A stretch of DNA of 1,703 nucleotides from the NCBI RefSeq assembly GCF_003334255.1, contig NZ_QOWU01000152.1. The stretch is one strand, 5' to 3'. Positions 504-720 of this stretch are shown piece after piece (position 1 is the stretch's first letter; every line of letters begins with the position of its first letter). The stretch comes from Escherichia coli (lineage in GTDB: Bacteria; Pseudomonadota; Gammaproteobacteria; Enterobacterales; Enterobacteriaceae). The notes beneath the pieces were generated by a model that ran no database searches, had not been told where the DNA came from, and was given only the letters and a program-made list of their open reading frames with translations. The translations under genes were made by a program, and so were the position numbers.

Positions 504-690
504 CCCGATTTCTGAGGCGTTTTAACGGTGAACGGACGGCAAAAACATGATCGAGCTGTTGAACGTGGAGAGCGCGAAATCGGGCAAAATCATGGCTGAC
601 GAGGCTTGCAGAGGAGTAAGCCAGTATACACTCCGCTATCGCTACGTGACTGGGTCAGGGCTTCGCCCCGACACCCCAAAAGGGCGTTGC

Positions 691-702
691 GTTGCGCGCA
701 AC
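691..702. repeat. Perfect 12-bp palindrome GTTGCGCGCAAC
   Basis: Self-complementary sequence at 691-702, preceded by the tandem GCGTTGC GTTGCGC. Lies about 20 bp upstream of the T-rich tract. Confidence 0.7.
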
Positions 703-720
703 ACCCTTGCCTAGAATAGA

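Follow-up and report, generated by a model that had tools for sequence, protein, structure and literature searches.

pKL1 of E. coli KL4 is the prototype of the Col(MG828) plasmids. Its oriV is located upstream of rep and includes an inverted repeat that is bound by Rep (PMC3832669). The RefSeq record of pKL1 (NC_002145, 1549 bp) has repA as its sole CDS. Plasmids that have an oriT and no relaxase have been described at large scale as a class of their own, pOriT, which includes plasmids with ColE1-like oriTs (PMC10123127). Relaxase-less pEC156 carries two such sites, one F-type and one R64-type, and is mobilised in trans by F and by R64drd11; mobilisation is lost when the oriTs are deleted (PMC4743918).

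The two oriTs to which the present locus is closest are those of the I complex and of ColE1. In R64 and other I-complex plasmids, the oriT consists of an inverted repeat placed 8 nt from the conserved nick region ACATCCTGT. The same architecture is seen here, but these plasmids have nikA and nikB and the plasmid described below has neither. The ColE1 oriT or bom, which is the MOB-HEN/MOBP5 cis site, includes the hairpin module GGGTGTCGGGGCG.AGCCCTGACC and a motif at the end of the block, CTGGCTTA, and both of these are also found here. In ColE1, however, the site belongs to an RNA I/RNA II replicon, whereas here it accompanies a RepA/pKL1-type replicon.

The window, which is the whole stretch of 1,703 nt that was analysed, is a complete circular 1546-bp plasmid of the pKL1/Col(MG828) type, written out past its own start; in a self-comparison, positions 1–157 repeat at 1547–1703. 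Its layout is that of pKL1. Like pEC156-type and pOriT plasmids, it is small and without a relaxase, and like pEC156 it has two oriTs, which would serve different helpers. The two differ in that pEC156 combines an F-type and an R64-type oriT on a ColE1 replicon, while the window combines a ColE1-type and an I-complex-type oriT on a 1.5-kb pKL1 replicon. The replicon and both oriTs are thus all of known kinds. A 55-codon open reading frame at 547–714 is present in the window and lacking in pKL1. This frame is almost certainly not a gene, and very probably is a chance reading frame over the cis-acting transfer DNA (428–676) of a pKL1-type plasmid with two oriTs.

The replicon

When Megablast was used, 343 plasmids of ~1.5 kb were found to match the window over nearly its full length. 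They come from E. coli, Shigella, Klebsiella and other enterobacteria and are typed Col(MG828), which for the near-identical records is the PLSDB assignment, and "mobilizable". The assignment of the window to this replicon comes from the homology of both RepA and the backbone to pKL1: DNA identity is 95.2% across 1546 nt, and the RepA proteins are identical at 158 of 158 residues. pKL1-type records in which repA is the only gene are also typed as mobilizable by MOB-suite, with no relaxase listed. The gene is as follows.

907–1383, plus strand: repA, a 158-aa ORF whose product is identical to pKL1 RepA

RepA has a weak helix-turn-helix signature. In nearly all RefSeq records of pKL1-type plasmids repA is the sole annotation, and it is the only credible gene of the plasmid.

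Just 5' of repA, the repeat listing shows TGTCGCATCC at 774–783 and 799–808 and, inverted, within 810–821. The repeats at 774–821 fit the inverted repeat to which Rep binds in the oriV of pKL1 (PMC3832669).

The two copies of the overlap are not quite the same. The copy at 1547–1703 departs from that at 1–157 at six sites (1624, 1628, 1646, 1658, 1688 and 1691), and each time a T is replaced by an A. In eight aligned relatives none has A at any of these sites; the T of the first copy is nearly always present, the exception being one C at the last position. The six differences are probably not biological and stem from errors where the contig or record ends.

Two origins of transfer identified by homology

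Upstream of the replicon are two regions of homology to known oriTs, with the following features.

428–511, plus strand: oriT of IncI-complex (R64/IncK) type, 96.4% identical over 84 nt to the IncK2/Z plasmid pMS7163B
428–451, plus strand: left module of 24 nt shared by both oriT types, GGGTGTCGGGGTGAAGCCCTGACC, an inverted copy of 653–676 (96% complementary, 201 nt apart)
457–494, plus strand: inverted repeat with 18-nt arms; DNA fold −23.8 kcal/mol, z = −4.9, 0 of 200 shuffles as good
495–507, plus strand: predicted nick region ACATCCTG/TCCCG (slash, nick after 502), invariant in all pKL1-type relatives and in both I-complex plasmids
617–676, minus strand: core of a ColE1-type oriT/bom, identical at 59 of 60 positions to ColE1 NC_001371 1462–1521
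617–624, minus strand: predicted ColE1-type nic 5'-CTGG/CTTA-3', equal to ColE1 1469–1462, with the cut between the complements of 621 and 620

The I-complex-type oriT is matched by 1,871 conjugative plasmid records. An IncI-gamma/K1 plasmid is 78% identical to 428–511. In both this plasmid and pMS7163B the match lies 16–17 nt upstream of nikA (annotated as mobA in one of them), which is followed by the nikB relaxase gene. A position directly upstream of nikA-nikB is that of the R64-type oriT. In addition to this homology, the region has the conserved nick region, the end of which is 8 nt past the inverted repeat. The nick is predicted to follow 502, by comparison with the R64 and RP4 nick regions. 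By analogy, the inverted repeat at 457–494 is a putative NikA-binding repeat.

The hairpin formed by this repeat exists as four sequence variants among the pKL1-type relatives and the I-complex plasmids, and the arms are complementary in each variant. At least three are found in the pKL1-type relatives and the fourth is in IncI-gamma/K1; the relatives compared with 428–511 in this respect were L002, L006, L017 (3498–3585) and L018 (3498–3587). Both pKL1 and relative L006 have a variant other than that of the window. Arms that co-vary between flanks that do not change look like the swapping of helper specificity.

The 60-nt ColE1-type block is shared by 4,779 plasmid records whose replicons are of many unrelated kinds; 4,393 of these records are typed mobilizable. 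The block adjoins rop and mobC both in ColE1 itself and in a ColE1-like plasmid of Salmonella. When read on the minus strand, the block begins with the hairpin module GGGTGTCGGGGCGAAGCCCTGACC and ends with CTGG/CTTA; here, DNA folding gives a hairpin with the arms GTCGGGGC and GCCCTGAC. Homology to ColE1 ends right after the hairpin module on one side and 4 nt past the predicted nick on the other. The motif CTGG/CTTA is presumably the MbeA nic site, at ColE1 1469–1462, and the position of that nic was reportedly established by Varsaki et al. in 2003, in Mol Microbiol 48:481. Papers retrieved from the literature with the motif CTGGCTTA were all irrelevant. From homology that includes the inverted repeat and the presumed nic motif, and from the association with mobilizable plasmids and mob genes, 617–676 is identified by its sequence as a ColE1-type oriT (bom). 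Unlike ColE1, the window plasmid has no mbe or mob genes and therefore needs a relaxase in trans.

Both oriTs start with the same 24-nt module, GGGTGTCGGGG(T/C)GAAGCCCTGACC, which in an alignment is invariant across the ColE1 oriT and the I-complex oriTs. Its GGGTGTCGGGG portion resembles the nic sequence of CloDF13, GGGTG/GTCGGG (PMC5935869).

The arrangement suggests two convergent oriTs, one of I-complex type on the plus strand (428–511) and one of ColE1 type on the minus strand (676–617), with predicted nick sites ~118 nt apart. Transfer would require a helper in the same cell. A co-resident ColE1-type plasmid could supply MbeA and MbeC, or an I-complex conjugative plasmid could supply NikA and NikB as well as the mating apparatus. 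The relaxase and accessory protein of the helper would act in trans and nick at one or the other oriT, resulting in transfer of the 1.5-kb plasmid. Transfer DNA at 428–714 would explain the spread of a single-gene plasmid of 1.5 kb through the Enterobacteriaceae: relaxases and mating machinery would be borrowed from ColE1-type and IncI-complex plasmids in the same cell.

The 55-codon frame

The first-pass annotation had pointed to a short open reading frame next to an origin-like region and had judged it probably not a gene. The frame and the hairpin at its 3' end are as follows.

547–714, plus strand: 55-codon ORF from ATG 547 to TAG 712–714, translation MIELLNVESAKSGKIMADEACRGVSQYTLRYRYVTGSGLRPDTPKGRCVARNTLA (ORF list)
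680–708, no strand assigned: hairpin around a palindrome; fold −11 kcal/mol, z = −2.8

The frame is present with an identical translation, and the 12-bp palindrome noted inside it is GTTGCGCGCAAC at 691–702. Its placement upstream of the origin-like region also holds, as the A/T-rich stretch, the inverted repeats at 774–821 and repA (907–1383) are all downstream. The I-complex-type oriT is outside of the frame and ends 36 nt before ATG 547, which lies in the spacer between the two predicted nicks. From there, the ORF runs out of a variable spacer, which makes up its 5' third, and into the ColE1-type oriT, which happens to be open in this phase and accounts for the conserved 3' two thirds. The oriT block corresponds to codons 24–44 (VSQYTLRYRYVTGSGLRPDTP), read in a stop-free phase. 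The ORF then ends after the hairpin at 680–708 (AAGGG.GTTGCG...CGCAAC.CCCTT), which has the oriT on one side and the A/T-rich origin region on the other. This hairpin is kept in close relatives of the backbone, has diverged in L008 and is absent from L009 and L010.

Frames of this length are no more than what is expected by chance. To obtain that expectation, the window was shuffled 500 times with dinucleotide composition preserved, and ORFs of at least 55 aa were counted. Five ORFs of at least 55 codons that start with ATG were observed, against 4.4±1.9 in the shuffles, and eight were observed against 9.1±2.2 when any start codon was allowed. Every shuffle (500/500) had at least one ATG-initiated ORF of this size.

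The frame is intact only in the near-clonal 1546-bp lineage of the window. Both pKL1 and 10 of the 11 relatives sampled have it broken or lack its start, so that the frame-disrupting changes in homologous elements that the first-pass annotation had named as evidence against a gene are present. pKL1 has ACG in place of ATG 547, together with one +1 and one −1 indel. Eight bp (551–558) are deleted from the 1538-bp variants L003 and L015, and an extra A (+1) follows position 585 in eight relatives (L002, L005, L006, L007, L008, L009, L010 and L014). GTG replaces ATG in L007 and L010. From the homologous start, the disrupted relatives have only 14–21 open codons; in L006 and L007 the frame continues in another phase and into an unrelated C-terminus. 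In the phase of the window, a start codon upstream of the oriT core is missing from most relatives, and three more distant small plasmids (L011–L013) have a stop inside the core in that phase. Even L001, which is 99.6% identical to the window, already has Met16Thr in the ORF.

Substitutions within the frame likewise have no coding signature. Variable sites are spread 8/10/11 over the three codon positions, and the 22 nonsynonymous and 8 synonymous changes are about what is expected under neutrality. By block, 24 of 70 sites vary in 547–616, 3 of 64 in 617–680 (the oriT core) and 2 of 31 in 681–711. In the alignment of whole plasmids, 541–600 is among the least conserved stretches and 631–900 among the most. 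Because the variability falls in blocks, the region reads as a spacer followed by cis-acting sites and not as coding sequence. The pattern indicates that the conserved part of the ORF is kept as DNA and not as protein.

A genuine small protein, Cop-like or regulator-like, with a role in replication control or transfer is exceedingly unlikely. It is true that many nearly identical plasmids of the widespread 1546-bp lineage have the ORF intact, that it is occasionally called a hypothetical protein there, and that a weak SD-like element precedes ATG 547. Against this, the frame is destroyed in pKL1, which has been studied experimentally and has an identical RepA; the substitutions have no synonymous bias; and the sole conserved part is the oriT held in common with ColE1, where no gene is annotated. 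The peptide has no match in Pfam even at E≤10 and none in NCBIfam at E≤1, and the suggestion of a Cop- or regulator-like protein found no support in these HMM checks. In none of the three respects in which a protein-coding gene was looked for, namely preservation of frame and start, synonymous bias and similarity to a known family, does the ORF behave as one. Likewise, no CDS or other feature is annotated under the ORF in the full-length plasmid matches. The earlier judgement that this is probably not a gene is borne out by the disruptions in homologs, the lack of a family match and the lack of synonymous bias, and the ORF should stay unannotated as a gene even though the deposits of some automated pipelines include it as a "hypothetical protein".

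Public protein collections do hold an 18-member cluster at 90% identity, made up of 55-aa variants that differ by single residues and come from dozens of contigs. All of the 55-aa members are unnamed, automated "hypothetical protein" calls, and their variants include changes in the part encoded by the oriT, with no sign of constraint. An unrelated protein of 549 aa, P0011, is also in the cluster and was set aside. TBLASTN of the peptide against phage records returned only five short records, which resemble the same kind of small plasmid. Three of the records named "Escherichia phage" (H141–H143, 1423–1949 bp) match the peptide region at ~90% and are probably plasmids of the pKL1 type that were given a phage label in error.

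Low-level translation of a young, lineage-specific micro-ORF is a different matter, as it calls for no selected function: in the 1546-bp lineage, the frame would be a product of pervasive translation or a de novo proto-gene. The ATG start, the open frame, the plasmid location and the weak SD-like motif are in keeping with this, but it is very unlikely given that ORFs of such size are expected by chance and that the cluster variants, including those in the oriT-encoded part, have no sign of constraint. The translation signals add little on either side. The first-pass annotation saw no good Shine-Dalgarno site, which is roughly right: the nearest thing to one, 8 nt 5' of ATG 547, is an interrupted GGAcGG. 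Its anti-SD duplex has an energy of −5.7 kcal/mol, which ranks at about the 15th percentile among all positions of the window, against −6.3 kcal/mol for repA, and the signal does not discriminate. Nor was a promoter-like site found for such a micro-ORF, but the simple promoter scan found no site in the whole window and also missed the promoter of repA, making it uninformative. A stronger version, in which ATG 547 recently captured the stop-free phase of the oriT in the 1546-bp lineage only and now yields a translated de novo microprotein that affects the plasmid or its host, is highly improbable. If true, the C-terminal two thirds of such a protein would be dictated by cis-acting transfer DNA.

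That the region acts as a regulatory RNA, for instance an antisense RNA for control of copy number, rather than as protein or transfer DNA has a probability close to nil. Antisense RNAs are frequent in small plasmids and the region is rich in hairpins. However, a search of Rfam on both strands at a permissive threshold gave only a chance-level match to a miRNA family at 764–829 (E = 0.87), which is outside the ORF, and no promoter- or terminator-like sites were found in 400–720 by the scan that also missed the repA promoter. In addition, thousands of plasmids whose replicons are unrelated have the conserved block as their oriT. Another reading that was considered, a leading-region gene whose expression would come from ssDNA after transfer, was rejected by inference on the strand for transfer from the I-complex-type nick. 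In that case, the transferred strand would be the sense strand of the ORF and therefore no template for its mRNA. A chance frame over the two-oriT transfer DNA is the reading we retain.

Other sequences in the non-coding half

Elsewhere in the non-coding half of these plasmids, chance ORFs are annotated inconsistently; some records call them "hypothetical protein", others even "replication protein". They are at the following positions.

L001 and L003 896–1048, equal to window 256–408, plus strand: inconsistently annotated chance ORF
L002 436–657, minus strand: the same kind of ORF
L006 922–1047, minus strand: the same kind of ORF
L016 1311–1631, plus strand: the same kind of ORF

L016 is a Salmonella ColE1-like plasmid, and in it an annotated 106-aa "hypothetical protein" spans the oriT core and shares the phase of the window's ORF.

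Further homology to ColE1 is found at 332–390, which contains AAGCGG and is 83% identical to ColE1 1309–1367, a segment that in ColE1 itself lies ~95 nt away from the oriT core. This stretch would correspond to the PriA (n') primosome-assembly or single-strand initiation site of ColE1 and pBR322.

An intergenic region found in IncX4 and IncX1 plasmids (L019 3001–3152 and L020 3001–3145) matches window 173–324 at 75–86% identity. In the IncX4 record the matching region is ~700 bp upstream of the replication initiator gene, and in the IncX1 record no replication initiator gene is annotated near it. From this similarity, 173–324 might be a third oriT, of R6K/IncX type, or a site related to an origin. 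Direct repeats of CTGAGAGC(C/T)TCTG are located at 171–192 and 240–261.
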